Below are positions 6,311 to 37,518 of a DNA stretch of 44,589 nucleotides, in pieces; the first letter of the stretch is position 1, and the number at the start of each line of letters is the position of its first letter. This DNA comes from Chitinophagaceae bacterium. GTDB taxonomy: Bacteria > Bacteroidota > Bacteroidia > Chitinophagales > Chitinophagaceae. The position numbers were made by a program, and so were the translations under genes. A model generated the notes under the pieces. The model saw nothing but the letters and a program-made list of their open reading frames with translations. It was not told the origin of the DNA and made no database searches. The stretch is from NCBI GenBank assembly GCA_036524255.1, contig DATDCP010000463.1, positions 1 to 44,589 of the forward strand. The letters run 5' to 3'.

Positions 6311-6715
6311 TTAACGTTGTACAACACGGATCGTTTCTACAGGAGAATAATGGGTAGTGCCATCATTCATGTGACAAGCAACCCTGTAATAAATCATTCC
6401 AGGAAAAATGCCTTCATCTTTCCATGAAAATTTTACTGCGCTGTTACAAGGGATCTCATTGATAACATCATAGAATTCACCGAGATCATAAGATCTTTCA
6501 ATGGTAAAGCATGTAACACCTGCTGGCGAATCAATACCCCAGTTCAATACAACATTCTTTTTTGACTGGTGATGAATACGGAAATAAGTAAAGTCATGTG
6601 CTACATTACCTGAAACAGAAGTAGTTGTATTATTAGCAACTGTTTCATTTTTACCTGAAAACGTAAAGCCGGTGAATGCAATAAATGCAACGGCAAAAAC
6701 AAAAAGCTTTTTCAT
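6311..6715 (-). CDS. Small secreted protein consisting only of a signal peptide plus one FN3-like 'LNW..ERS..G..F..YYR' module
   Basis: Signal peptide MKKLFVFAVAFIAFTGFTFS, then VLNWGIDSPAGVTCFTIERSYDLGEFYDVI..YYRVACHMNDGTTHYSPVETI. There is no T9SS tail. Confidence 0.65.
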   Translation of the reverse strand: MKKLFVFAVAFIAFTGFTFSGKNETVANNTTTSVSGNVAHDFTYFRIHHQSKKNVVLNWGIDSPAGVTCFTIERSYDLGEFYDVINEIPCNSAVKFSWKDEGIFPGMIYYRVACHMNDGTTHYSPVETIRVVQR

Positions 6716-6849
6716 AAGGTAGAATTTTTAATGATATGAAAGTAGTCCAGGCTAGTTCCCCCAACAAGGAACATTTACCAATAAAATACACTCAGAACAT
6801 CCAATTCAACTTTGAATTTTTAGGGTTAAATCAGGAGGTAGGCTTACTA

Positions 6850-6880
6850 AGAAAAAACCCTCTCCAAAAAGAAGAGGGTT
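6850..6880 (-). terminator. Intrinsic terminator after the giant repeat protein gene
   Basis: On the minus strand, AACCCTCT tctttttgg AGAGGGTT is followed by ttttttc. Confidence 0.7.
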
Positions 6881-6921
6881 TTAATAACAAATGTAATGGG
6901 TGTTTAAAGTTTTTGATTGGC

Positions 6922-9900
6922 TTAACCTCTTTTTATAATTTTTCTATTAATAACATTATTGTCTGAAATTACTCGTAGAATATAAAAGCCTGCTGGAAGT
7001 TTCTCTGTATTATCAATATTAATTCTATTTCTGCCTTTTACCAGGTTATAACTTCCAACCTTCACCTTATGCTGGTATTGATCTAGAATTTCAACCTGAA
7101 CTAATCCATCATCACCAGAAATAAGATCAAATTTCACATTCGAATTGAACGGGTTGATCAAAGACTCGATTTGAAGCCCAGCTTTATCACCTATTAATTG
7201 AATTACTTTAGAATATTTAAATTTATTATCCTGCGTATTAATTGCCTTTATTCTATAATAGCTAATTGTATTGTCTAAGAGTTCCGGGTCTGTAAACCGA
7301 TAAGAATTATTTTCAGCATCGGGATGTTTGAATCCTACCAGTTCACCGATCTTTTCAAAATAGCTGCCATCCTTACTTCTTTGAATTTCGTAAGTCACAG
7401 GTGTGGTTTCCTTTGAGGTATTCAAATACAATACAGCTTGATTATTTTCATTCCTTCCCCGGAAAGAAAGGATATCATTATTTAAAAGGAACCCACATGG
7501 ATCAACATTAAGAGTTATTTCAGCTGTTTCATTGAACTTGCAAGTAGAGCTGGCAAGATTTGAAGCTGATGTTGCTACTGCCACCCTATATACACTGCCA
7601 CTATCAGAATAATAGCCAATAAATGGAGGATAATCTACAGTATACTCATATTCCGATCCATTCCAGGTTGGACTTGCAGTTCCACCGATTCCTGTAGAAG
7701 TCCAGGTAACGCCGCCATCTATACTTTTTTCCCACCTATAATGATTATAGTTGTTGTAGAATGAGCGTACAACAGTTGACATTTCAACTAAATTACTATC
7801 GCATAAGAAAGGGTTTGGACCGGGAAGCAAATCCAGTTCGGGACTACAGGTCTTCAGGGCTATATCATCGATCGCCCAGTCATTTCCGCCACCACCAGGT
7901 GCATTATTTCTAAGGGACATGGTGAAGCTGGTTTGCGATGGCCCGGTTTTATATACAAAAGCTCTTTGAACCCATTGATTCAGGGTATCCGATCCTGTTT
8001 GGGTTCCGCCCAATCCCATGTAACGTAAATTACCGGTGGTATAATAGTCCACACCATCTATTGCAATTGCGATATTAGGTCTGACACCTGTAGAATCGCC
8101 TGGACCAGTTGGAAGGTAACTGCCGTTACTTGAAAAACGACCAAGCGAATCACAACCACATTTATAACAAATATTTTTAAACCAGGCGGATATTTCATAG
8201 TACGTGTCAGGGCAAGCGCCTGAAACATTAAAATCAAAAGCAATGTCAGTTTTATAAGAGGCGTTAATTGCCAGCATATATCCGCCAGAACTACCAGGAC
8301 TAGCTGGCAAATTTCCTTTAGTCAAATTCGTTGCGCCAGTATGGTCACCACTGATATCCCAAACACCGTGAACACGGGCTGCATTGGATTTAGTCAATAA
8401 TTGATTCGTGGATCCGAGAGCACTGGTATTATTCGGAATTCCATAGTAGTAATCTTGTGGAGTACTTGTGTTAAATGGTGTATATAAATAATTGGTATTA
8501 GGTGATGTGCCCCTGTTTTGTGTGGTTCCTGTTCCAAATGTTCCGTTACTTTCATCACCCAAAATATTCGTTTGCGACACACTGTTCGGGCATGAACCAG
8601 GGCTTTGAAAAATCATAATGCTGTCAGGTGGGAATTGGATAGTAGAATAAACACCGGTAGTTTGATCACGATAACTGAATGCGCCACCTCCAAAATTTAT
8701 TGTCTGACCATAGGATGCATTTACCACGACCCGATAGGTGGCAAGAATAATACAGTTCGCACTGGTGCCGGTATTAAATCTCGGTACAGATGCACTATTT
8801 AAAGTACCTCTTGCTGTTCTGCTTGCTCCTGTTCCCATATTAATTTGAATGGCTGTGTCAGTTCCTACACCTCCCGCGATCATCCACCCCGCATCAGAAT
8901 CAGCATTACTTTCAGTGAAGTATTTATATCGTTTCCCTTCGTTTGTTCTTAGTGCTATAGAATCATAATAGTGCAAACCACCACCTGCTTTCAATGTATC
9001 ATAATAAGCGACACTGTCGATAAATCTTATACCGCCTCCGTTTGGCCTTACAACCAGCGTAGCCCTTATTTCTAAAATATCTCCCGGATCTATTGTGCCC
9101 CCCGTAGCGGTATCACTCAAGTTTACATAGCTTTTCGAATAATCCAGTATCGCACTTGCTGTTGCAACGGGGTCGGTGACACAAATAGTAAATCCATATG
9201 TACCACCTGCAGGAGGTGCCATATTTGTATTTGTAGTTATTCTTATGTAATACGTGTTACCTACAATCAATCCTGCTCCTCCTGGTGTTGTGGCTGTGTT
9301 TAATGTTGTTGGTGAAGCTGCAACTGTCAGGCAGGCAAGAGAGGTTGCAATACCACCGCAGCCTCCTGAAAAAGTAAGTAATTGTATTCTGGGACTGGCT
9401 GTAAGCAGATTTCCACCAATATTGTCGAGTCTAATTGAAGGATATGCAGTTTGAGCAACAAAACTGTACCATACCTCCGGAGATGAAGCATTACCACATC
9501 CTGGTAAGCCTGCTGTTGCAGTTGCATTTACTAATGTACCTGCTATATTTGAACAGGTAGTTCCACTTGTTAACATAGTTGCGCCTGTACATAAATCATT
9601 AGAAGGTGCTGCTGCTGCAGCAGTTATACAAATATTGAAATTGGCGACAGTACCTGTACCCGAAGGGTTTACCCCAAAATTGGCAATTCTTACATAGTAT
9701 GTTGTACCAATCAATAATCCTCCTTGTGTCAACGTATAAGTTGACGCACAACCTACAGGAACAAGTGCAGCACAAATTCCACTGAATATTTGAATTCTTT
9801 GCGCAGTAAAACTTGAACCTATACTACCTAATGTAATTGTATGAGAAGCCGCAGTAGCAACAAATGAATACCATACATCATAATAAGTCCCTGCTGCAAC

Positions 9901-22009: not shown

Positions 22010-22161
22010 CAACAACACATTTTTATACAAGTGAGTCATTTTTGATCCATTTGTATTGAACTCTTAAAAAAAATTGGTGTGCTGATTTAAGCTTTGAATT
22101 AAAATAGCTTGATCATTATTATTCTCTAAGTGTTTTTTTGTAGTACCCTAAATCCGTTCAG

Positions 22162-24801
22162 ATGAAGACAACTATACCAATTATTCCCTTCAGGCCCAAT
22201 TTTAAATTTGTGCGAAACTGGTTCATTAACCTGTTTGTTGCCTCTTGGTTTCTTGTACCCACCTCGTCTTTTTCGCAGTGTACAAACTATACAGTTAATT
22301 GGGACTATCTTGATTTTTTTCATAACACACCAGGATCATGGTATTATGTTACTCCCCCAGCAGGGAGCAATCCTTTTGTTACGAACGCAATGAAGCAATC
22401 TCAAAACTTTGCCTTGGGACCAACCAATGTGCTAAATATTGCGACTTTAATTCAAGTTGCTGGAAGTGGTGTATTCTACGGTGATCTTACAAATCATTTA
22501 GGTGAGATTGCTGGATATACCGGAGCGGATGTATCGTTCACCCCAACAGCAAATGGTCAAACTATTATTTTTACTTTTTTGAATGAAGTAACAAATGCAA
22601 GTTTTACCTTATATGGTGTAGATAGACAACAGGTCATTAGTGTAGCCGCGACTAATACTGGTGGTACAGCGCAAACTGTAACAGCTGCTACCTATGCTTC
22701 CAGTATTCTAACAATTTCCGGAGCACCCGGAAAAACAATTACTGCAAGTAATACTACAAGTACGTCTCCTAGCAATACAGGTAGTGCTACTTTTACCGTC
22801 ACTACATCTGTAAAAACAATTACTTTAACTGTAAGTACCCTTGGAAGTATTCCAACATTTTGGCTTTCTGATATTATAGCTTGTTCTCCGGATCCAGGTT
22901 TTCCAACAGACTACTATAAGCCATATACGCAACCTTATACTGGTCAACCTGCTTATTTCCTCGCTAATCCGGATTTTAACCTAAATGTATATATGGTAGA
23001 TCCTGTTAACAGAACTGCCGATCTGTTATTTACTGATCCGGGTATTGGAGGCAATGCATTAAACTCAATAGCATATGACCCGGTAAATAAATATGTTTAC
23101 TATGTAATGAATGGCTCCGGTGCAGGCGCTGGCAACAGGTCACTAAAAAGATATGATGTAACTACAAACAGTATCACAACGGTTCTTGCGGATATAAATT
23201 CATTAGGAGTACCTACGTTTACGCAAGGAGTTGAAGCAGCTTCAGCTGCTTTTTATAATGGTTGTTTATACTTAGGAGTAGAAGGCTCCGAAACAGGTTC
23301 ATTTACCTCAAATACCGAGGCTATCATATGGCGAATTGATTTTAGTGGCACGACGCCCATAAGAGCTTCACAGGTTTTTGGTATGCTAAACGATGATGGT
23401 GCAGGCCAACCCAGTCATGACTGGGGAGATATTATTACTAGAGATGGCAATATAATTACACATGCGTCAACCCGACTTACACCGTCCTACCAAAGTAACT
23501 GGATCCATTTTAACATGACCACAAGCACCTCTACAAATACATATCCGGGATATGCTGATACGTCGGGACAGCTTGGTCAGATTTATGACGGCACAGTCTA
23601 TAGAGTAGATAATCAAATAGCATTATATAATAATAATGGTACGACTGCTGCAGCAAACCCAATATCAGTTACCTCTTGTTCGCCGTCCTGGAACAACAGG
23701 CCGGCAAATGATGCATCGGATCCTTTTAGACCAGCTCTTGATTTTGGAGATGCACCGGCTACTTATGACCCTGTTGCTTTATCTCCGGCTGCAAATCAAA
23801 AAGCATGTAATAACTCAACATTGAGAATAGGTTCGGCGTGGGATCGTGAATGGGTATTAGGTAGTTCATTGAATGCTACAGGAGATGGGACAGATGAAGA
23901 TGGTGTTTCTACCGTTTCTATTATGGTTGCTGATGGCATTTCATATAATCATGTACAGGAAGTAACTGTTCTGAATAATACAGGTGCTCCTGCTTATCTG
24001 GCCGGATGGCTCGACTATAATGCAAATGGGGTCTTTGATCCCTCTGAAGGAGTTGTGGTTACAGTACCAAGCAGCGCTTCACCACAAACAATAACACTTG
24101 GTTGGACTGGAATTACTATAGCACCGGGTACACCGAATAGTTTTTTACGAGTAAGGCTTTATTCCGGAGCGCTAACTACAAGCAGTGCAACAGGCTGGTT
24201 GGCTGATGGCGAAACCGAAGATTATCCTGTACTTTCTCAGGCGATGCCACTTGTTATCGAGTTACTTGATTTCACTGCAACTCTAACGAGAGATAAAAAT
24301 GTTTCATTAAACTGGAGAGCATATGTCGATGACGAAGCAAAGGGTTTTGAAATAGAAAGGAGTAAGGATCAGAATAATTGGGAAAAAATAGGAGCTGTAA
24401 ATTTAAAGACATCGAACTTTACAACAGATTATAGTTTCCTGGATCAACTACCATTACAGGGAAAATCTTATTACCGCCTGAAAATGGTGGAAAAAACAGG
24501 TTCATCAAGATACAGCAAGACAAGGCTGATACAAATTGATCAGCTTATTACAAAACTCAGGATATACCCTAACCCTGCTAAAAATGATGTTACCGTTTCA
24601 TTTAATTCTTCAATGAATCAATCAGCGACATTGATCATCAGATCAATAGCCGGAGAAGTAATGATGAGGAAATCAATCACCCTGGCTGAGACGGACAACC
24701 GGGTAAGTGTGTCAACAAATGGACTAAGCAATGGCTTATACGTTGTTGAGCTAATTACTCCCGAAAAAACATTCGTCAATAAGTTAACTGTAGCACATTA
24801 A
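22162..24801 (+). CDS. Large T9SS-secreted protein with GEVED-like domain, FN3-like module and T9SS tail
   Basis: Signal-like N-terminus, then a Thr/Ser-rich beta-rich body. DFGDAPATYDP..DEDGV..WLDYNANGVFD..GETEDYPV resembles the GEVED domain. This is followed by LNWRAYVDDEAKGFEIERSKDQNNWEKIG..YYRLKMVEKTGSSRYSK and IYPNPAKNDV..GLYVVELITPEKTFVNKLTVAH. Confidence 0.8.
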   Translation: MKTTIPIIPFRPNFKFVRNWFINLFVASWFLVPTSSFSQCTNYTVNWDYLDFFHNTPGSWYYVTPPAGSNPFVTNAMKQSQNFALGPTNVLNIATLIQVAGSGVFYGDLTNHLGEIAGYTGADVSFTPTANGQTIIFTFLNEVTNASFTLYGVDRQQVISVAATNTGGTAQTVTAATYASSILTISGAPGKTITASNTTSTSPSNTGSATFTVTTSVKTITLTVSTLGSIPTFWLSDIIACSPDPGFPTDYYKPYTQPYTGQPAYFLANPDFNLNVYMVDPVNRTADLLFTDPGIGGNALNSIAYDPVNKYVYYVMNGSGAGAGNRSLKRYDVTTNSITTVLADINSLGVPTFTQGVEAASAAFYNGCLYLGVEGSETGSFTSNTEAIIWRIDFSGTTPIRASQVFGMLNDDGAGQPSHDWGDIITRDGNIITHASTRLTPSYQSNWIHFNMTTSTSTNTYPGYADTSGQLGQIYDGTVYRVDNQIALYNNNGTTAAANPISVTSCSPSWNNRPANDASDPFRPALDFGDAPATYDPVALSPAANQKACNNSTLRIGSAWDREWVLGSSLNATGDGTDEDGVSTVSIMVADGISYNHVQEVTVLNNTGAPAYLAGWLDYNANGVFDPSEGVVVTVPSSASPQTITLGWTGITIAPGTPNSFLRVRLYSGALTTSSATGWLADGETEDYPVLSQAMPLVIELLDFTATLTRDKNVSLNWRAYVDDEAKGFEIERSKDQNNWEKIGAVNLKTSNFTTDYSFLDQLPLQGKSYYRLKMVEKTGSSRYSKTRLIQIDQLITKLRIYPNPAKNDVTVSFNSSMNQSATLIIRSIAGEVMMRKSITLAETDNRVSVSTNGLSNGLYVVELITPEKTFVNKLTVAH

Positions 24802-29410: not shown

Positions 29411-30319
29411 TCAATGAGATGTAAGAGATAAAAAGTAATCTTCCAATGAATTTTTTTTCTGAATTGAAAATATATCCTGTTTCATTTCTCCCATTTGCTG
29501 AACAAAAGCCGGCACTTCCTCTCTTTTCATTTGCATAATGATCTTTTGCCCGTTTACTGAAATGATCTTATTTGCCCAGGATGTTTGCTTCAGCAGCAAT
29601 TCAAATTCATTTGCAGATCTGGTTTCAACTTCTATTCTCGATTGTTCAGGATTCAATAATTCATTCATATTTCCCTCTGCAATTTTTTTCCCTTTATGAA
29701 TAATCAGTAATGAATCTGCTACTTGTTCCATTTCACTTAATAAATGAGAGGAAATAAATACAGTTTTTCCCAGATCCTTACTCAGGTGATTAATTAGCTG
29801 TCGTATATCGGCGATCCCTTGTGGATCCAGTCCATTCATAGGTTCATCTAAAATAATTAGATCAGGATCATGAACCAGGGCTACAGCGATCCCCAATCTT
29901 TGTTTCATTCCCTGTGAATATGTTTTTATTTTACTATCTGCTCTTTCAGCGAGGCCCACTTTCCCCAGTTTATCCATTAATTGTTTGCGTTTAAGTTTTA
30001 ATCCGCTCATTGTTGCAAACAAATTCAAGTTCTCAATTGCAGTAAGATATTTATACAGATCAGGTTTTTCAATTATGGCACCTATTCGTTGCAAAATTTC
30101 TTTTCTATGTGTGGAAAGATCAAGGTCAAAAATTCTTATTTCACCATTGGCAGGTCTAATTAAGCTCAGCAGCATTCGTATAGTAGTAGATTTTCCTGCA
30201 CCGTTTTGACCCAAAAAACCATAAACACCGTTCTCTTTTACAGTAAAAGTCAAATTATCAACTGCGATGATTTCGTTGAATGATTTCGTTAATCCACTAA
30301 CATCAATGATTGAAGACAT
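29411..30319 (-). CDS. ABC transporter ATP-binding protein (ABC-2 exporter type)
   Basis: Walker A GQNGAGKST, signature YSQGMKQRLGIA, Walker B LIILDEP, H-loop SSH. Confidence 0.92.
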   Translation of the reverse strand: MSSIIDVSGLTKSFNEIIAVDNLTFTVKENGVYGFLGQNGAGKSTTIRMLLSLIRPANGEIRIFDLDLSTHRKEILQRIGAIIEKPDLYKYLTAIENLNLFATMSGLKLKRKQLMDKLGKVGLAERADSKIKTYSQGMKQRLGIAVALVHDPDLIILDEPMNGLDPQGIADIRQLINHLSKDLGKTVFISSHLLSEMEQVADSLLIIHKGKKIAEGNMNELLNPEQSRIEVETRSANEFELLLKQTSWANKIISVNGQKIIMQMKREEVPAFVQQMGEMKQDIFSIQKKNSLEDYFLSLTSH

Positions 30320-30338
30320 ATAGTAATAGTACGAAATT

Positions 30339-30346
30339 CAAAATTA
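30339..30346 (-). promoter_or_regulatory. Candidate -7 box (TAATTTTG) for the ABC operon
   Basis: The plus-strand CAAAATTA is TAATTTTG on the minus strand, 20 nt upstream of the ATG at 30319. I found no clear -33 TTG. Confidence 0.35.
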
Positions 30347-30413
30347 GCTCAAAAATTCTTCATTGAGAATGAGTCCTTTCAAAATAAGATAACAAAAATC
30401 CCCTTGGAAAAAC

Positions 30414-30520
30414 TTGCATGCGCTGATTGCACATATTACGTTTGTGATGTCGTAGAATAATGGAAGCATCGAAGGAAAAATTACGATAAACGATCCGTTA
30501 CTAATTCAACCCTAAGGAAA
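30414..30520 (+). promoter_or_regulatory. Cassette 0 promoter plus conserved leader
   Basis: TTG at 30414..30416 and TACGTTTG at 30437..30444. The leader has ATCCGT at 30493..30498 and TCAACCCTAAGG immediately before the ATG. Confidence 0.6.
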
Positions 30521-31144
30521 ATGAAAAAAATTATTACCCTGTTATTAATTAGTTTTTCAATAACCGCTCAATCAATCAACGCACAATTAGACCTGGCTTT
30601 TGTTTCCAATTTCAGTGCTAACCCAACTAATTCCTCCAATCGACTTACCTGGACAATCGCAAGTAATCAGAGTGTGAGTAGTTTCGAAGTTGAAAAAAGC
30701 ACCAATGGAAAAGACTTTAAGACTATTGCAATATTGGAAGTAACAGAAGAATTTAATACAGAAAATTATACATATACTGATACTGCGATCAGTGCAGACA
30801 AAATAATGTATCGTCTTAGAGTATTGATCAGGAGGAGCCAGCATGATTTTTATTCAAGGATTATTATAGTCAAGTCCAAAACGAAGCTTGATGACAATAT
30901 CAGGATCATGGAAAACCCTGTAAAGGATAAGCTTTTTTTCAGTTACAATTCTGCAAAAGTGCAAGTAGCAGATATCAAAATATATAGCCTGACAGGAAAA
31001 ATTTTAGTTAATCAAAAAATAAGCAGTTTTAAAGGAAATAATTTAATAACTATTCCATTAAGCTCAGTCTTTGCACCTGGAATGTATGTGATTGAAATTA
31101 ATACTGATATTTTAAACCAAACCGCAAAATTCGTAAAACAATAA
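30521..31144 (+). CDS. 'Headless' T9SS surface protein: signal peptide + FN3-like module + T9SS tail
   Basis: 207 aa. LTWTIASNQSVSSFEVEKSTNGKDFKTIA..MYRLRVL, then ENPVKDKLFF..GMYVIEINTDILNQTAKFVKQ. It is a paralog of the tails of the next three genes. Confidence 0.8.
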   Translation: MKKIITLLLISFSITAQSINAQLDLAFVSNFSANPTNSSNRLTWTIASNQSVSSFEVEKSTNGKDFKTIAILEVTEEFNTENYTYTDTAISADKIMYRLRVLIRRSQHDFYSRIIIVKSKTKLDDNIRIMENPVKDKLFFSYNSAKVQVADIKIYSLTGKILVNQKISSFKGNNLITIPLSSVFAPGMYVIEINTDILNQTAKFVKQ

Positions 31145-31190
31145 CAGCTTTTTCATAAAATACTAATACAAGCCATTAGCCAAAAGAAAA

Positions 31191-31217
31191 AGGCCCTTTA
31201 TAAAAAGGGCCTTTTTT
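31191..31217 (+). terminator. Intrinsic terminator of cassette 0
   Basis: Stem AGGCCCTT/AAGGGCCT followed by tttttt. The stem is related to the GGCCC stems ending the 3' elements. Confidence 0.8.
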
Positions 31218-31425
31218 ATGTACAAACAGATCTAGCAACAAATACATGCTCTACACATAAACACAAGATCATCATTTGTGAATGCAGTTGAATAATTCGT
31301 TGATCTACGAACTGCAATGATAAAAGACATAAAGTAATTATACTAAGTTCAAAATTAGTTTTAAAAAAAACATTATTGAAAATGAAACTATTGAGATCTT
31401 ACTTAAAAAAAACCCGTAGAAAAAC

Positions 31426-31607
31426 TTGCAACAATTAAATGTGCATATTACGTTTGTGTCAGCGTAAGAACAATCCAAAGTATCCACGAAAAACAACGAT
31501 AAGCAATCCGTACTGATACCTCTTCTAAAAGAACCATTTTCCGGTAACATTACGGCTGCTTCAAAAAATTCGAAAAATCGATCCGTTTAATATTCAACCC
31601 TAAGAAA
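31426..31607 (+). promoter_or_regulatory. Cassette A promoter plus ~150-nt conserved leader
   Basis: TTG at 31426..31428 and TACGTTTG at 31449..31456. AATCCGT at 31505..31511 and ATCCGT at 31581..31586. Stem CCGTACTGATACC (31508..31520) with GGTAACATTACGG (31543..31555). TCAACCCTAAG lies before the ATG. Confidence 0.6.
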
Positions 31608-32726
31608 ATGAAAAAGATCTTTACCCTTTGCACCCTTGTAACATTGTCACTTTTTGCGAATAACTCATATTCGCAGATTAATGTAAACTTTGATAATGGG
31701 TTTGCCCCCCTTCAAGCCGATTGCTGGCAGTTCACTAACATGATGCATGCAACCACCCCTTCCGGTTATGTTATTAATGGGAATGGAAGTGCATACTCAG
31801 AGCCACCAGTAAGTTCCGACAGTTTACGTATTATGCGTACACCGTTCCTCGATTTTGGAACTGTTGTCGATGTATCTTTTGTTTACAGAATTAGCAGCAA
31901 TCTAAATGGCCTTGCAACAAGGTTTATAAAACTTGACCTGGTGAATTCTGCAGGAGTAGTTGTTCAGACTCTTGACAGCTTTAACATCAGTAATGCCGCT
32001 ACAACTTCTACTTTATACAGCCAGACGTTTGCGGTTAATACTCCAGGTATGTATAGATTTTCTCTTACCATGGGTGGAAAAACAGGAGCTGGTAATGTAA
32101 GAACATCAATTGATGATCTAAATGTAAATGCCCCGGTAATAGGCTGTGACGCTGTCGAAGTAAACAAGGTATTGCCTGTTCATCTTATCGCTTTCCAGGG
32201 TAACCTTAATAAGAATAATAAAGTAACTCTTAACTGGACTGTTGCTGATAATGAGATCGCCGGAAATTTTGAAGTAGAAAGAAGTTTTAACGGAAGAGAT
32301 TTTACAACGGTTGGTTTTGTATTTGCTTCTGAAAAAATGGGAACTGAAAACTATATGTTTTATGAAACAATAAGTGGTACAGATAAAGTGATGTATCGTC
32401 TTAAAATGATCGATAAACATCATGAAGTTAGTTATTCAAGAATACTGATCTTCCAGTTGAAATCTACGACCACTAATAATATCAAGATCATCGGTAACCC
32501 TGTAAACGATAAACTTACTTTCAGCTACACTTCTGCAGGCACACAAATGGTTGATGTAAAAGTTTACGATATAAGTGGCAGAATATTATTAAATAATAAA
32601 GTAAATAGCCTGGAAGGCAGCAACGTGATAAGCCTGCCATTAAGTTCAACTTTCAAGGCTGGTATGTATGTGGTAGAAGTAAATAACGGAACCGAAGTTC
32701 ATTCATCAAAATTTGTAAAGCAATAA
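31608..32726 (+). CDS. T9SS surface protein with ~170-aa beta-rich head + shared FN3-like/T9SS tail
   Basis: Signal peptide ..LFANNSYSQ and a head of unknown family. The tail is almost identical to that of the next gene. Confidence 0.85.
   Translation: MKKIFTLCTLVTLSLFANNSYSQINVNFDNGFAPLQADCWQFTNMMHATTPSGYVINGNGSAYSEPPVSSDSLRIMRTPFLDFGTVVDVSFVYRISSNLNGLATRFIKLDLVNSAGVVVQTLDSFNISNAATTSTLYSQTFAVNTPGMYRFSLTMGGKTGAGNVRTSIDDLNVNAPVIGCDAVEVNKVLPVHLIAFQGNLNKNNKVTLNWTVADNEIAGNFEVERSFNGRDFTTVGFVFASEKMGTENYMFYETISGTDKVMYRLKMIDKHHEVSYSRILIFQLKSTTTNNIKIIGNPVNDKLTFSYTSAGTQMVDVKVYDISGRILLNNKVNSLEGSNVISLPLSSTFKAGMYVVEVNNGTEVHSSKFVKQ
32171..32726 (+). repeat. Copy 1 of a 556-bp near-identical direct repeat (partner at 34474..35029)
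   Basis: Both copies run from ATTGCCTGTTCATCTTAT.. to the stop codon with no indels. By eye I count roughly 20 substitutions. Confidence 0.9.
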
Positions 32727-32799
32727 AACATTATTAACTCAATTAACTTTTCATTTCTTAGATAATACTTCTATTTCATTGAAAAAAATCGAATTGAAT

Positions 32800-32829
32800 A
32801 AAAGCCGAAAAAAATTCGGCTTTTATTTT
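32800..32829 (+). terminator. Intrinsic terminator of cassette A, inside a 126-nt insertion
   Basis: Stem AAAGCCGAA/TTCGGCTTT followed by tattttaaaa. Confidence 0.75.
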
Positions 32830-32852
32830 AAAAAAAGAAATTAAATGTTCAA

Positions 32853-33036
32853 ACAAGCCATCTTCCCGAAATCTGGAGGGAGCAAAGGAAGATAGGAACA
32901 AGCAATCCTCGTCAATCAAAAAGATCTCCTGATACTAAGTCAAAGATTCTGACGACTGGTTAAACCCTTGAAAAATTTTCATACACTTAGAGTATCAACG
33001 GAGACGGGCCCTATTTCTATAGGGCCTTTTTTATTT
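32853..33036 (+). ncRNA. Conserved structured 3' element, copy A (candidate 3'-UTR-derived or stand-alone small RNA), ending in an intrinsic terminator
   Basis: Nearly identical to 35038..35220. Hairpin ATCTTCC/GGAAGAT; long-range helix TCTCC-TGATAC-TAAG with CTTA-(GA)-GTATCA-(AC)-GGAGA; terminator GGCCCTAT ttct ATAGGGCC + tttttt at 33007..33036. Confidence 0.45.
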
Positions 33037-33238
33037 ATAATAGATCAGGACAAAAGAACATATCTTCTTTACAATAAAAATCAGATCATTATTTGTGTTG
33101 CCTGTTGAATGATTTTTTAATACACATCTTAAATGTTACAAGACTTAAGCATTAGACTAAGTTCTAAAATTTGTTTTAAAAAAATTTGTTGAAAATGAGT
33201 CTATTGAAATTTTACTTGAAAAAAACCCTTAGAAAAAG

Positions 33239-33412
33239 TTGCAACAATTAAATGTGTGTATTACGTTTGTATCAGCGTAAAGAATCCACCGATCCCCGAA
33301 AAACTCCGATAAGTAATCCGTACTGATACCTCCTCTAAAAAAAATTTCCCGGTAACATTACGGTAGCTTCTAAAGTTAGACACAACAATCCGTCATACAT
33401 CAACCCTAAGAA
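33239..33412 (+). promoter_or_regulatory. Cassette B promoter plus ~140-nt conserved leader
   Basis: TTG at 33239..33241 and TACGTTTG at 33262..33269. AATCCGT at 33315..33321 and 33387..33393. Stem 33318..33330 with 33351..33363. TCAACCCTAAG lies before the ATG. Confidence 0.6.
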
Positions 33413-35029
33413 ATGAAAAAGATTTTTACACTTTCCGTTCTTGCCATCTCTGCCACCTTCTTAAATGCGCAGGTAGTACTTAACGAGATCTATACCGATC
33501 CAGGTAATGGCAAAAATGAATTCTTTGAATTCTACAATACAAGTTCAGACCCTGTACCACAAAACATGGACAACTATACCTTGGTAGCTTATTATGAGGA
33601 ACCAGGTAAAACTGGTTTCTACGTATTGGATCTTCCCAATCAAACAGTAGCTTCTAAAGGTTTTTATGTAGGTTCATCTGCAAACCCATTTAAAGTGCAG
33701 GGACAGACAAATGTTGCAGCGGATTTTGTATGGAACGCAATTCCTGCCGGTGGTTACCTGAAAAAATTCGAAAGATCAGGAGCTATTTACACTGAGGTCG
33801 CTGTTCCTGCAAACCTTAATGATCTTTTTGTGGCACGTTCTGGCACGGGTTGCATACAACATATTTTAGTTTTCCAAAATGGATTACTTATTAATGGAAT
33901 TGTTACGGGAACAAATTTTGCCATTTTGCCAACTTATCTTAAAACAATGCCCCCATTGTTTGTAGATATGAGCGGTGCTTCAATAGACTTTACAGTAAAT
34001 TTTAATTCTTTTAATGATAACCAGTTCGAATATGTGAATTCAGCTGCAGGTAATGACAATGGCTATATGCGTCTTAGCGATGGTAAGTGTGGTGTATGGG
34101 CTAAAAGTAGCTCTGCGGTAAATCATACTCCCGGTCAATCAAATGGATCGGCTTCTGGTTCAGCCGGAGATCTTTCGATCAGCAACTACATTACTGAATT
34201 AGAAAGCGATTTTACGAAATCCTTGTTAGTGTATAATGTCACTTCCACAACCTTATCAGCGTTCCCGGTTACAATCCAGGTATATGAAGACTTGGGAATA
34301 ATAGGACAATTGGATGCGGCTGATCTAATAGTCGATTCAAGAGTGCTTTATACTTTAACTGAAGGTGACCAGTTTGTGATCATACCTTCCAGAACTTATC
34401 CGGCAATTATTGTTGCAAGAACTCCTTCGGGATGCTTTGACCAGGTTATTGCAGTACCTAATAGCTTAAAGCTATTGCCTGTTCATCTTATTGCTTTCCA
34501 GGGAAACCTTAATAAGAATAATAAAGTAACTCTTAACTGGACTATTGCTGATAATGAGATCGCCAACAATTTTGAAGTAGAAAGAAGTTTTAACGGAAGA
34601 GACTTTACAACGGTTGGTGTTGTATTCGCTTCTGAAAAAATGGGAACTGAAAACTATATGTTTTATGAAACAACAACTGGTACAGATAAAGTGATGTATC
34701 GTCTTAAAATGATCGATAAACATCATGAAGTTAATTATTCAAGAATACTGATCTTCCAGTTGAAATCTACGACCACTAATAATATCAAGATCATTGGTAA
34801 CCCTGTAAACGATAAACTTACTTTTAGCTACACTTCTGCAGGCACACAAATGGTTGATGTAAAAGTTTACGATATAAGTGGCAGAGTATTATTAAATAAT
34901 AAAGTAAACAGCCTGGAAGGCAGCAACGTGATAAGCTTACCACTAAATTCAACTTTCAAGGCTGGTATGTATGTGGTAGAAGTAAATAACGGAACCGAAC
35001 TTCAATCATCAAAATTTGTAAAGCAATAA
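33413..35029 (+). CDS. T9SS surface protein with lamin-tail-domain (LTD)-like head + shared FN3-like/T9SS tail
   Basis: The signal peptide is followed by VVLNEIYTDPGNGKNEFFEFYNTSSDPVPQNMDNYTLVAYY, an LTD-type pattern. The tail LNWTIADNEIANNFEVERSFNGRDF..YRLKMIDKHHEV.. GNPVNDKLTF..GMYVVEVNNGTELQSSKFVKQ completes the protein. Confidence 0.85.
   Translation: MKKIFTLSVLAISATFLNAQVVLNEIYTDPGNGKNEFFEFYNTSSDPVPQNMDNYTLVAYYEEPGKTGFYVLDLPNQTVASKGFYVGSSANPFKVQGQTNVAADFVWNAIPAGGYLKKFERSGAIYTEVAVPANLNDLFVARSGTGCIQHILVFQNGLLINGIVTGTNFAILPTYLKTMPPLFVDMSGASIDFTVNFNSFNDNQFEYVNSAAGNDNGYMRLSDGKCGVWAKSSSAVNHTPGQSNGSASGSAGDLSISNYITELESDFTKSLLVYNVTSTTLSAFPVTIQVYEDLGIIGQLDAADLIVDSRVLYTLTEGDQFVIIPSRTYPAIIVARTPSGCFDQVIAVPNSLKLLPVHLIAFQGNLNKNNKVTLNWTIADNEIANNFEVERSFNGRDFTTVGVVFASEKMGTENYMFYETTTGTDKVMYRLKMIDKHHEVNYSRILIFQLKSTTTNNIKIIGNPVNDKLTFSYTSAGTQMVDVKVYDISGRVLLNNKVNSLEGSNVISLPLNSTFKAGMYVVEVNNGTELQSSKFVKQ
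34474..35029 (+). repeat. Copy 2 of the 556-bp near-identical direct repeat (partner at 32171..32726)
   Basis: See copy 1. The encoded tails differ at about ten amino-acid positions. Confidence 0.9.
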
Positions 35030-35037
35030 CCTTAATA

Positions 35038-35220
35038 ACAAGCCATCTTCCCGAAATCTGGAGGGAGCAAAGGAAGATAGTACAAGCAATCCTCGTCAAT
35101 CAAAAAGATCTCCTGATACTAGCCAAAGATTCTGACGACCGGTTAAAACCTTAAAGATTTTCATACACTTAGAGTATCAACGGAGACGGGCCCTATTTCT
35201 ATAGGGCCTTTTTATTTTTT
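35038..35220 (+). ncRNA. Conserved structured 3' element, copy B, starting 9 nt after the stop codon and ending in an intrinsic terminator
   Basis: Same helices as copy A. The terminator stem is 35189..35196 with 35201..35208, followed by a T-run to 35220. Confidence 0.45.
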
Positions 35221-35272
35221 ACGTTTAAACACAAAAAAAGACAGTGTATCGTAGTTTTTCATCGCATATTGC

Positions 35273-35469
35273 TTGCTTTCCCAATAAACACGTAGTAGAT
35301 TTGTTAAGAAGATTTCGTCAAATATCCGACGTAAAAACCATCTAAGATAATCCGTACTGATACTCACTCTAGAAACAATTCCTTTTCATTACGGCATTTT
35401 CAGCTGGTGGTTAAGATCAGAGATCATTAGACCTTTTTAATCCGTTTTTGATAATTCAACCCTAAGGAA
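35273..35469 (+). promoter_or_regulatory. Cassette C promoter plus ~165-nt leader
   Basis: TTG at 35273..35275 and TAGATTTG at 35296..35303. AATCCGT at 35349..35355 and 35439..35445. Stem CCGTACTG (35352..35359) with CATTACGG (35387..35394). TTCAACCCTAAGG lies before the ATG. Confidence 0.55.
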
Positions 35470-37089
35470 ATGAAAAAATTTTTTACTCTTTGTGTGCTAA
35501 TATGCATTGTGATCGTATCAAGATCCCAGGCTGTATTAAACGAGGTTTACCCGCAACCTGGAAACGGTTATCATGAATTCTTCGAGCTTTACAACGAATC
35601 TGACACTGCTGAAAATCTAGATAATTATACAGTTGTCATTTATTATGAAGAAGGGACTACATCCGGATTCTATGTACTTGATCTTCCTACCGCATCTGTA
35701 GCAGCACATGGTTATTATGTAGGCGCTTCGCAAACTTCTTTTGATATTCAGGCTCAGCTGGGGCAAACCGCAAATTTCAGTTGGAACTCAATGCCTGCTG
35801 GTGGTTCATTAACGAAATGGCAAAAGAATGGATCTTCTTATACATCAGTTGCAGTACCTGCAAACCTTAATGATCTTTTAGTAAAAATTAATGGTGGTGG
35901 TGGTGGTGTATTTCATGTTTTTGTTTATAAAAATGGAATTATAGTAAATGGTCTCATTGGAGGTATTAGCACAAGCGTTGTACCGGCTTATATAAAAACA
36001 ATGCCGAATTTACCTGTCGATATGAGTGGCAGTTCACCTGACTTTATTATCAACTTCAATACTACCGCTGATAACAGTTTAGAATACCTGACTAATTCCG
36101 TAGGTACAAACAATGGTTACTTCCGCAGTTCTGATGGATTATGTGGTGATTGGTTAAAAAGTGATTCTCCGGGACAACATACACCGGGAGCAACAAATGG
36201 CGCATCACTAAGTTTAATTTCTTCAAACCAATTTTCAATTGGGGCTGTTATATCTGCTTACACCTTTGATCTAAGCAAATCTCTGCTCACTTATAATATA
36301 TCATCAGCTCCTGCAGGTGCCTTTCCTCTTACAGTTGAGATATATGCTGATCTCGGTATTGCGAGTGAATGGGATATAAACGACAGCCTTATTGATTTGA
36401 GAACCATCCTCAGTGCATCTTCCGGTAACCAGGATATAGTATTATCATCATTAAATACTGCTGTAATTGTTGTTGTAAAATCAGCAAATGATTGTTATAA
36501 CAAAAATCTTCCCGTTGCAAGCTATTTGTCAGTATTACCAGTTGAGTTGATCAGCTTCCAGGGCAACATAAACAAAAGCAATAAGGTATCACTTGAATGG
36601 AAAGTGATGAGTAATGAAACAATTGATCGTTTTGAAATACAAAGGAGCTATGATGGGAATGAATTTAAAACAATTGGAATCGTATTTGCAAGCGAGAAAA
36701 AAGATAATGAAGACTACATGTTCTATGAAACGATCAACAGTTTTGATAAAGCAATGTATCGTCTTAAAATGATTGACAAGAACAATAAGGTCACTTACTC
36801 CAAAATATTGGTGTTTCAGTCAAAAGCTGCAACTACCAGCAATATCAAGATCATCGGAAACCCTGTGAATGATAAACTCACCTTCAATTATTCATCTTTT
36901 ACAGAACAGGTAATTAATGTAAAGATTTATGACATGACAGGCAGGGTTATCATGAGCAATAAAATAAATAGCCTTGAAGGAAGTAATACTATATGTTTTC
37001 CTTTGGCCTCAAATTTTAAAACGAATATGTATGTACTAGAAGTAAGTAATGGATCTGATATTCAAACAGCAAAATTCATAAAGCAATAA
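35470..37089 (+). CDS. T9SS surface protein with LTD-like head (diverged paralog) + FN3-like/T9SS tail
   Basis: AVLNEVYPQPGNGYHEFFELYNESDTAENLDNYTVVIYY. The tail is LEWKVMSNETIDRFEIQRSYDGNEF..YRLKMIDKNNKV..GNPVNDKLTF..MYVLEVSNGSDIQTAKFIKQ. Confidence 0.85.
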   Translation: MKKFFTLCVLICIVIVSRSQAVLNEVYPQPGNGYHEFFELYNESDTAENLDNYTVVIYYEEGTTSGFYVLDLPTASVAAHGYYVGASQTSFDIQAQLGQTANFSWNSMPAGGSLTKWQKNGSSYTSVAVPANLNDLLVKINGGGGGVFHVFVYKNGIIVNGLIGGISTSVVPAYIKTMPNLPVDMSGSSPDFIINFNTTADNSLEYLTNSVGTNNGYFRSSDGLCGDWLKSDSPGQHTPGATNGASLSLISSNQFSIGAVISAYTFDLSKSLLTYNISSAPAGAFPLTVEIYADLGIASEWDINDSLIDLRTILSASSGNQDIVLSSLNTAVIVVVKSANDCYNKNLPVASYLSVLPVELISFQGNINKSNKVSLEWKVMSNETIDRFEIQRSYDGNEFKTIGIVFASEKKDNEDYMFYETINSFDKAMYRLKMIDKNNKVTYSKILVFQSKAATTSNIKIIGNPVNDKLTFNYSSFTEQVINVKIYDMTGRVIMSNKINSLEGSNTICFPLASNFKTNMYVLEVSNGSDIQTAKFIKQ

Positions 37090-37099
37090 AAATATTTAA

Positions 37100-37236
37100 G
37101 AGCACATCCGTACCGTCAAACAAAGTCTCCCGATACTAAGCCAAAGAATCTGTAGATTGGTTAAACCCTTGAAGTATTTCATACACTTAGAGTATCAACG
37201 GAGACGGGCCCTATTTCCATAGGGCCTTTTTTATTT
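37100..37236 (+). ncRNA. Conserved structured 3' element, copy C (lacks the first hairpin), ending in an intrinsic terminator
   Basis: Has ATCCGT at 37106..37111 and the long-range helix TCTCC-CGATAC-TAAG with CTTAGAGTATCAACGGAGA. The terminator is GGCCCTAT ttcc ATAGGGCC + T-run, and the T-run overlaps the stop of the convergent wHTH gene. Confidence 0.4.
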
Positions 37237-37518
37237 TTGTGTAAGGTAAGCCTGCAGATTTTTTACATACTCTTCGAATGCTTTGATCCCGATTGACGTT
37301 ATTTTACAAATTGTTTGAGGATAATTGTCTTTAAATTGTTTTATTACCTCGATATAACCTACTTCTTTTAATTTTTGAATTTGCACACTTAGGTTTCCGG
37401 CTGTGGCATTTGTGTTTTCCTTTAAAAAAGTAAACTCTGCTTCTTTTACACTTATAAGAAGTGACATCACAGCCAATCGTAGTTGAGAATGCAATATGGG
37501 ATCAAGATCTTTAAACAT
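37231..37518 (-). CDS. Small winged-helix transcriptional regulator (HTH_34/ArsR-MarR-like)
   Basis: 95 aa. LDPILHSQLRLAVMSLLISVKEAEFTFLKENTNATAGNLSVQIQKLKEVGYIEV is a typical wHTH pattern. It overlaps the upstream gene by 8 nt. Confidence 0.75.
   Translation of the reverse strand: MFKDLDPILHSQLRLAVMSLLISVKEAEFTFLKENTNATAGNLSVQIQKLKEVGYIEVIKQFKDNYPQTICKITSIGIKAFEEYVKNLQAYLTQK

Follow-up and report, generated by a model that had tools for sequence, protein, structure and literature searches.

The question raised by this locus is why the 3' ends of a tandem gene family carry a segment antisense to the translation start of the very same genes. The locus lies in a window (the whole stretch of DNA analysed) of 44,589 nt, read on the forward strand of contig DATDCP010000463.1 from the Chitinophagaceae bacterium assembly GCA_036524255.1, and comprises four tandem paralogs, called Z, A, B and C (Table 1). 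A T9SS type A C-terminal sorting domain is recognised by Pfam in all four proteins, and the B and C proteins have in addition an N-terminal lamin-tail-like (LTD-like) domain, slightly below the Pfam cut-off; the Pfam scan covered nine proteins of the window. On the minus strand, the segment 37231-38777 encodes the HTH_34 regulator together with two membrane proteins that gave no Pfam hit, all convergent on gene C. As the 3' end of the regulator gene directly adjoins the element terminator in many MAGs, this arrangement can be considered as syntenic.

In the preliminary description, the 3' elements that follow genes A, B and C were said to contain a segment antisense to start regions of the form CTAAG(N2-4)ATGAAAA. 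The segments were indeed found at these places and the start regions at all four genes, the two being complementary over 7 bp, a loop and 5 bp. In element C, the segment is present and only its quotation has to be corrected, as the quoted 16-mer, TATTTCATACACTTAG, begins at 37175 and is off by one.

Table 1. Coordinates of the genes, start regions, leaders and 3' elements of the locus (positions are those of the window).
Feature	Position	Strand	Sequence or remark
Four tandem paralogs, T9SS cargo	30521..37089	+	Z 30521-31144, A 31608-32726, B 33413-35029, C 35470-37089
Gene Z start region	30512	+	CTAAGGAAAATGAAAA
Gene A start region	31600	+	CTAAGAAAATGAAAA
Gene B start region	33406	+	CTAAGAAATGAAAA
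Gene C start region	35462	+	CTAAGGAAATGAAAA
Gene A extended start region, proposed target	31581..31614	+	ATCCGTTTAATATTCAACCCTAAGAAAATGAAAA
Putative Bacteroidota-type promoter, gene A	31426..31456	+	TTG 31426-31428, TAcgTTTG 31449-31456
Leader site 1	31507..31519; also 33317-33329, 35351-35363	+	TCCGTACTGATAC, invariant across species
Z-type 3'UTR segment just past gene Z stop	31149..31156	+	TTTTTCAT
Stop-proximal anti-start segment, gene A 3'UTR	32748..32761	+	TTTTCATTTCTTAG, exact 14-nt complement of gene B CTAAGAAATGAAAA
First terminator-like hairpin after gene A	32804..32829	+	GCCGAA..TTCGGC + T run
5' hairpin module, long (type 1) element A	32852..32920	+	CCATCTTCC..GGAGGGAGC..GGAAGATAGG..AATCCTCGTC
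5' strand of long-range helix, element A	32925..32939	+	TCTCC-TGATAC-TAAG
Anti-start segment, element A	32976..32990	+	TTTTCATACACTTAG
Near-invariant 30-nt block, element A	32976..33005	+	TTTTCATACACTTAGAGTATCAACGGAGAC
Intrinsic terminator, element A	33006..33032	+	GGGCCCTAT/ATAGGGCC + T run
Element B (type 1)	35036..35213	+	directly after gene B stop; block 35158-35187, terminator 35188-35213
Anti-start segment, element B	35158-35172	+	TTTTCATACACTTAG
Element C (short type 2, without 5' hairpin module)	37100..37232	+	block 37176-37205, terminator 37206-37232
Anti-start segment, element C	37176-37190	+	ATTTCATACACTTAG
HTH_34 winged-helix gene	37231-37518	minus	convergent with last family gene C (Pfam)

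The anti-start 15-mer is the 5' end of the 30-nt block TTTTCATACACTTAGAGTATCAACGGAGAC, which adjoins the intrinsic terminator and constitutes the 3' arm of a 3'UTR element of 140-180 nt in total. The 3' two-thirds of the block form the 3' strand of a long-range helix: in consensus and centroid folds, UCUCC-GAUAC-UAAG is paired with CUUA-GUAUC-GGAGA, which leaves UUUUCAUACA(CUUAG) unpaired in the loop. Among 95 unique copies, the UCUCC-GAUAC/GUAUC-GGAGA part is paired in 97-99%. The CTTAG, previously described as sequestered by the internal CTAAG, is paired in about 90% of cells over the 95 copies, and this pairing shows no covariation. All the variation of the long helix is found on its 5' strand, mostly as A to G or C to U changes, the 3' strand being frozen. 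As these changes mostly give G-U pairs, which on the opposite strand would be C-A mismatches, the element acts as an RNA of the + strand. The terminator stem contains one covarying AU/UA pair. Metatranscriptome contigs of very low depth, extending from 34913-34948 to 35063-35136, run from the coding sequence of gene B across its stop codon at 35029 into the element, which is thus a co-transcribed 3'UTR. No Rfam 15 family reached the gathering threshold in the whole window, and a permissive Rfam scan of positions 30300-37300 gave chance-level matches only (E of at least 0.08). The element is a previously undescribed RNA element, and it is clearly real.

The long elements begin with a 5' module (32852-32920 and 35036-35100) made of the stem CCATCTTCC/GGAAGATAGG and of GGAGGGAGC, which is invariant and has a potential pairing partner in GCAATCCUC. 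An H-type pseudoknot is possible there, and the sequences of the 5' module are too conserved for it to be amenable to a covariation test.

The distribution of the block was established by a scan with the 20-mer CTTAGAGTATCAACGGAGAC in one genome per species, which gave 23 loci, spread over about 18 MAG species of Chitinophagaceae or Bacteroidota; all 23 are downstream of a paralog ending in ...KF[VI]KQ* and having the same start region. A second scan, independent of the block and anchored on the start region, led to 100 metagenome contigs and to 113 unique family genes with a 3'UTR; the block is present in 72 of these 113, and 53 of the 72 have it as the exact TTTTCATACACTTAGA. The identity of the block is 97-100% over these MAG species (about 18) and metagenome contigs (about 100). 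When the relatives are compared with the window genes, protein identity is 50-80% and identity at four-fold third sites, which are near saturation in the family, is 0.25-0.6, as against 97-100% for the 30-mers. This difference indicates strong purifying selection rather than recent duplication. Conservation begins exactly at TTTT and extends through the terminator. The unpaired ACA is conserved at 93-95%, level with the paired bases, so that pairing with the start region cannot be the sole constraint on the block.

A lineage represented by L014, L023 and L107 carries TTTTCTTACACTTAG, which breaks the pairing with the U of AUG. The first family gene of this lineage has a strongly diverged block, TTTTTTCAATCCTGGAGTTTCGACGGATAG, and its start regions are canonical.

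On the side of the proposed target, the start regions of the four + strand genes have in common the form CAACCCTAAG(G)AAA(A)ATGAAAAA, and the equivalents of the extended gene A start region open with ATCCGT at 30493 (Z), 33388 (B) and 35440 (C). CTAAG N2-5 ATGAAAA occurs seven times in the window against 0.18 expected; four of the seven are the start regions themselves, in sense, and the other three are antisense copies. The anti-start segments of A, B and C are paralogous and thus not independent. The third antisense copy, TTTTCATTTCTTAG at 32748-32761, had been overlooked in the preliminary description. Its caveat that part of the match is generic was justified: 5 of 25 unrelated genes of the window also begin with ATGAAAA, which makes the TTTTCAT half of the anti-start segment generic. 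TTCAACC, the best-conserved piece of the start region, is without match in the block, and the start region is kept in some family members without the block.

Each gene is preceded by a putative promoter of the form TTG ... TAnnTTTG, which we take to be the Bacteroidota promoter consensus, and then by a leader of about 150-165 nt (about 150 nt for gene A, the transcription start of which is a prediction). The second complementarity reported earlier, between GTATCAACGGA and the TCCGT(AC)TGATAC of the leaders, was confirmed as well: this part of the block is complementary to leader site 1, in all three leaders, through 11 bp with a 2-nt bulge. Leader site 1 and the start region are as frozen as the 30-nt block. 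The leaders (31470-31607 for gene A, likewise for B and C; about 160 nt) contain as near-invariant blocks three ATCCG, AATCCGTACTGATAC and CCGGTAACATTACGG (31541-31555); like the three ATCCG, GGTAACATTACGG is an invariant block of the leader. No consensus secondary structure of the leaders was found. ATCCGT is at chance frequency window-wide (13 copies versus 12 expected), yet 8 of the 13 copies are in the family locus.

Two other readings were examined and rejected. A small minus-strand ORF starting from ATGAAAA is contradicted by indels of 1-2 nt in its first five codons among the copies. That the element arose from the leader by inverted duplication is not borne out: the similarity of the 5' arm to the leader is not significant (p 0.1-0.6), and that of the reverse-complemented 3' arm is marginal (p 0.01-0.1).

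The strength of the complementarity was assessed by duplex energies. Between the block and the family start regions, these are -13.8 to -17.7 kcal/mol, with z of -3.5 to -4.2 and p of 0.001-0.007 against dinucleotide shuffles, and when the 29 start regions of the window are ranked, four of the five best belong to family genes. Pairing is collinear over the entire length of the block (UCCGU/ACGGA, CUAAG/CUUAG and AUGAAAA/UUUUCAU). When cofolded with the family start regions, elements A and B open their internal helix and form the collinear duplex, with a ddG of -7 to -13 kcal/mol; element C stays closed. As all the copies are homologous, the number of independent observations behind these statistics is roughly one or two.

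A sliding scan along both strands of the window brings up about 16 unrelated sites that have a better pairing to the block, the first percentile being at -16.5. Cofolding of the whole elements with the family start regions yields -6.8 to -13.4 kcal/mol for A and B, the non-family mean among the 29 start regions being -6.2 kcal/mol (sd about 3), so that in whole-element cofolding the family genes are not outliers; for element C they are even worse than average. The preliminary description had called for a comparison with shuffled controls and had taken equally good matches at unrelated genes as speaking against the idea. The block does beat its shuffles, unrelated window sites pair with it as well as the family does, and the whole-element cofolds do not set the family apart, which partly goes against the idea.

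No compensatory covariation was seen between the block and the start region, which can be explained by both partners being frozen. About 7-10 of the rare block variants are wobble-compatible (C to T, for instance CAT to TAT) and about 9 are disruptive (CTT, AAT, TTCT, CTCAG and CCTAG); one start region reads CTACG beside an unchanged block.

Segments resembling the anti-start segment are also found closer to the stop codons. The 3' end of gene A has two steps: an antisense 14-mer located 22 nt past the stop, followed by a hairpin, and then the conserved element. This two-step layout is seen in many other species. The TTTTCATTTCTTAG module is found in the window and in L065 and L040, whereas other sequences have modules of their own, CTTTCATTTCTTAGG in the L021 spacer, CTTTTCTTAGG(G) in L002, L011 and L007, and CTTTCATCTTAGGTTGAA, which covers TTCAACC too, in L008 and L020. 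Complementarity to the start region is significant in 10 of 18 stop-proximal spacers, with energies down to -17.6 kcal/mol. The modules keep TTTCAT..CTTAGG and lose the GTATCAACGGAGAC part, and by their sequence they look like diverged copies of the block. That complementarity is kept or even improved in such diverged modules suggests an anti-start function and is its strongest support. At the scale of the 113 genes, the longest perfect complement that the start region has in the proximal 3'UTR does not differ in mean length from the sense control, and complements of at least 8 nt are in excess (28 versus 9 of 113).

The L011 sequence contains four tandem modules, each composed of an anti-start-like segment and then a hairpin. 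On its + strand, at about 6620-7200 and after a family gene ending in KIIKN*, tandem units of about 165 nt end in (CAT)TTCTTAGG and a CCCGGG-type hairpin, and the array closes with a type 3 element bearing the canonical block. The Z-type 3'UTR resembles the block and may be a diverged relative; the complementarity of TTTTTCAT alone to the start region is not significant.

All these results bear on the antisense reading put forward in the preliminary description, which is supported by the complementarity, the unpaired site, the conservation, the co-transcription and the diverged stop-proximal modules, and is not supported by covariation or by whole-element specificity. We tentatively retain, at somewhat less than even chances, that the block could be an antisense, anti-start module toggling between its own 5' arm and the leader/start region. 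We infer this pairing and its effect, for an RNA whose structure, conservation and co-transcription are observed. The folding models are compatible with a competition between a closed form, in which the block is held by its own 5' arm, and an open form. On opening, the block would leave its 5' arm, and the freed block would pair collinearly with UCCGU, CUAAG and AUGAAAA and with leader site 1 (UCCGUACUGAUAC), either by a 5'-3' fold-back within the same mRNA or between the mRNAs of paralogs; the form acting in trans could be a terminator-protected 3' fragment. In such a duplex, the start codon would be hidden along with the A-rich tract ahead of it that SD-independent initiation in Bacteroidota requires, and the translation of the family would be damped. 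The stop-proximal modules (TTTCAT..CTTAGG and hairpin) would act alike. Ribosomes of Bacteroidota are known to work without SD pairing (PMC7797042).

A wider version, which we regard as rather unlikely, is that self-targeting 3'UTR modules, sometimes in tandem, act in cis and, as released 3' fragments, in trans, and thereby cross-repress the translation of the whole paralog family. The outcome would be a family-wide autoregulatory RNA circuit independent of Hfq, in which SD-less initiation would make the occlusion of the start region especially effective. Such a frozen many-to-many network would explain the ultraconservation of the 30 nt. Post-transcriptional control is poorly understood in Bacteroidota, which to our knowledge have neither Hfq nor ProQ; we know of few characterised regulatory RNAs in this phylum and of none in soil Chitinophagaceae. 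The element could thus be a concrete entry point to the question of 5'-3' communication or of 3'UTR-derived RNAs in Bacteroidota.

The block could alternatively be kept for another role at the RNA level, as a platform for a protein or an RNase, or in 3'-end formation, stability or localisation, its complementarity to the start region being then incidental or the by-product of a shared motif. We hold this alternative, the main rival, to be almost as likely as the anti-start module. A constraint of this kind is consistent with a conservation that is uniform over the 30 nt, unpaired ACA included, with the absence of covariation with the start region, with pairing energies that are unexceptional compared to those of unrelated sites and start regions of the window, and with the occurrence of the start region without the block. 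The further invariant and unstructured blocks of the leader (three ATCCG and GGTAACATTACGG) are also what factor-binding sites would look like, and a sequence resembling the start region in the sense orientation (TTAAACCCTTGAAAAA versus TTCAACCCTAAGAAAA) is present in the element, which suggests a shared binding factor. What such a role leaves unexplained is that complementarity is kept or perfected in the diverged stop-proximal modules and that the block matches collinearly two separate modules of the leader. Even if the anti-start idea fails, the invariant 30-nt block points to a strongly selected protein or RNA partner.

A conserved single-stranded stretch followed by a terminator, and more conserved than the coding sequence, could also be the seed of a 3'UTR-derived sRNA having other genes as main targets, the likeness to the family being secondary. 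That the 3'-terminal segment is more conserved than the coding sequence and has its own terminator is just what is found in such sRNAs. One candidate target was found in the window: CTCTAAGTGT, at 22124-22133, is a perfect 10-nt complement of ACACTTAGAG, ACA included, it is conserved in L047 and L064, and among the start regions cofolded with elements A and B, that of the gene at 22162 ranks first (-13.6 and -15.1 kcal/mol). This candidate is the only one, in three sequences, and it may belong to the promoter and not to the transcribed part of that gene; a search of 751 kb of related DNA gave no second recurrent site complementary to the block, a stable short RNA was not seen in the sparse, low-depth RNA contigs from metatranscriptomes and from runs of unknown type, and no internal promoter for a separate short RNA was convincing by eye. 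An sRNA directed mainly at other genes is, in our opinion, quite improbable. The gene at 22162 (22162-24801) is an unrelated T9SS cargo gene with a GEVED domain; CTCTAAGTGT precedes its start by about 30 nt, and ATCCGT is found 10 nt before its start codon.

A feature of the DNA itself, such as inversion or recombination sites flanking the next promoter or operator sites for the HTH_34 regulator, is hardly credible: although each terminator-promoter-leader segment is surrounded by inverted repeats (anti-start segment versus start region, GTATCA versus TGATAC), the block (TCATAC-N7-GTATCA) is itself partly palindromic and the HTH_34 gene is syntenic at the array end, the repeats are imperfect (12/15 positions) with variable spacers, a recombinase-like ORF is not evident in the 44-kb window (ORFs, and Pfam on 9 proteins), the mostly G-U variation in the helix is an RNA property, and the block tracks the 3' ends of genes and not promoters, as it is found after the last gene and is absent upstream of the first. 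A DNA inversion or invertible promoter was rejected on orientation counts taken upstream of 180 start regions in 124 sequences, where the same orientation is seen for site 1 (132:1), the -7 box (106:0) and the block (53:0). The single inverted copy of site 1, among 133, is located upstream of one start region.

Coming back to the anti-start module, the closest known system is icaR of Staphylococcus aureus, the 3'UTR of which pairs with the 5'UTR of the same mRNA (PMC3868564). In both cases, a long co-transcribed 3'UTR has a motif complementary to the ribosome-binding region of its own gene, with a block of initiation that is here a proposal. As in icaR, the complementary segment is found within the transcript of the gene, on RNA contigs of very low depth; compensatory changes or a specificity relative to other start regions were not found. 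The two systems differ in that the anti-SD motif UCCCCUG of icaR is directed against an SD and that RNase III cleavage has been shown, whereas the Chitinophagaceae element faces no SD and has a match, interrupted by an internal loop, to the start codon and to the CUAAG that precedes it. It is moreover shared by a whole paralog family and ends in a terminator.

A fold-back of this type is also known for the hok mRNA of the R1 hok/sok system, in which pairing of the 3'-terminal fbi element with the 5' tac element results in fold-back inhibition. The likeness would reside in the extreme 3' end pairing with a 5' translation-activating region and in an alternative fold setting the state of the mRNA. 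By contrast, the hok mRNA encodes a toxin, becomes active once its 3' end is trimmed and is under the control of the antisense RNA Sok, and neither a toxin, nor trimming, nor a separate antisense gene is evident at the Chitinophagaceae locus.

3'UTR-derived sRNAs such as CpxQ, SdhX and s-SodF are released by RNase E, are usually Hfq-dependent and have other genes as targets. Like them, the element has last nucleotides (about 60-180) that are more conserved than the coding sequence, with an unpaired stretch and then a terminator of its own; unlike them, its candidate target is the parent gene family, in Bacteroidota, which are without Hfq.

Pairing between UTRs has been described in cis for B. 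subtilis hbs, between its 5'- and 3'-UTR (PMC5737220), and between two mRNAs for the Listeria hly 5'UTR and prsA2 3'UTR (PMC8722363). These bacterial UTR-UTR pairings affect stability or expression, as is proposed here, but they stabilise or couple expression instead of occluding a start codon, and they concern single genes and not a motif that is 97-100% identical family-wide. Judged by its sequence, the element has the features of the compared systems, covariation and specificity excepted.

Finally, a same-sense look-alike of the 30-nt block, CTTAGAGTATTGATCAGGAG, is found within the coding sequence of gene Z (30815-30834), where it encodes a MYRLRVLIRR motif. It is conserved in Z-type genes on other contigs, and may be due to chance or be a hint to the origin of the block.
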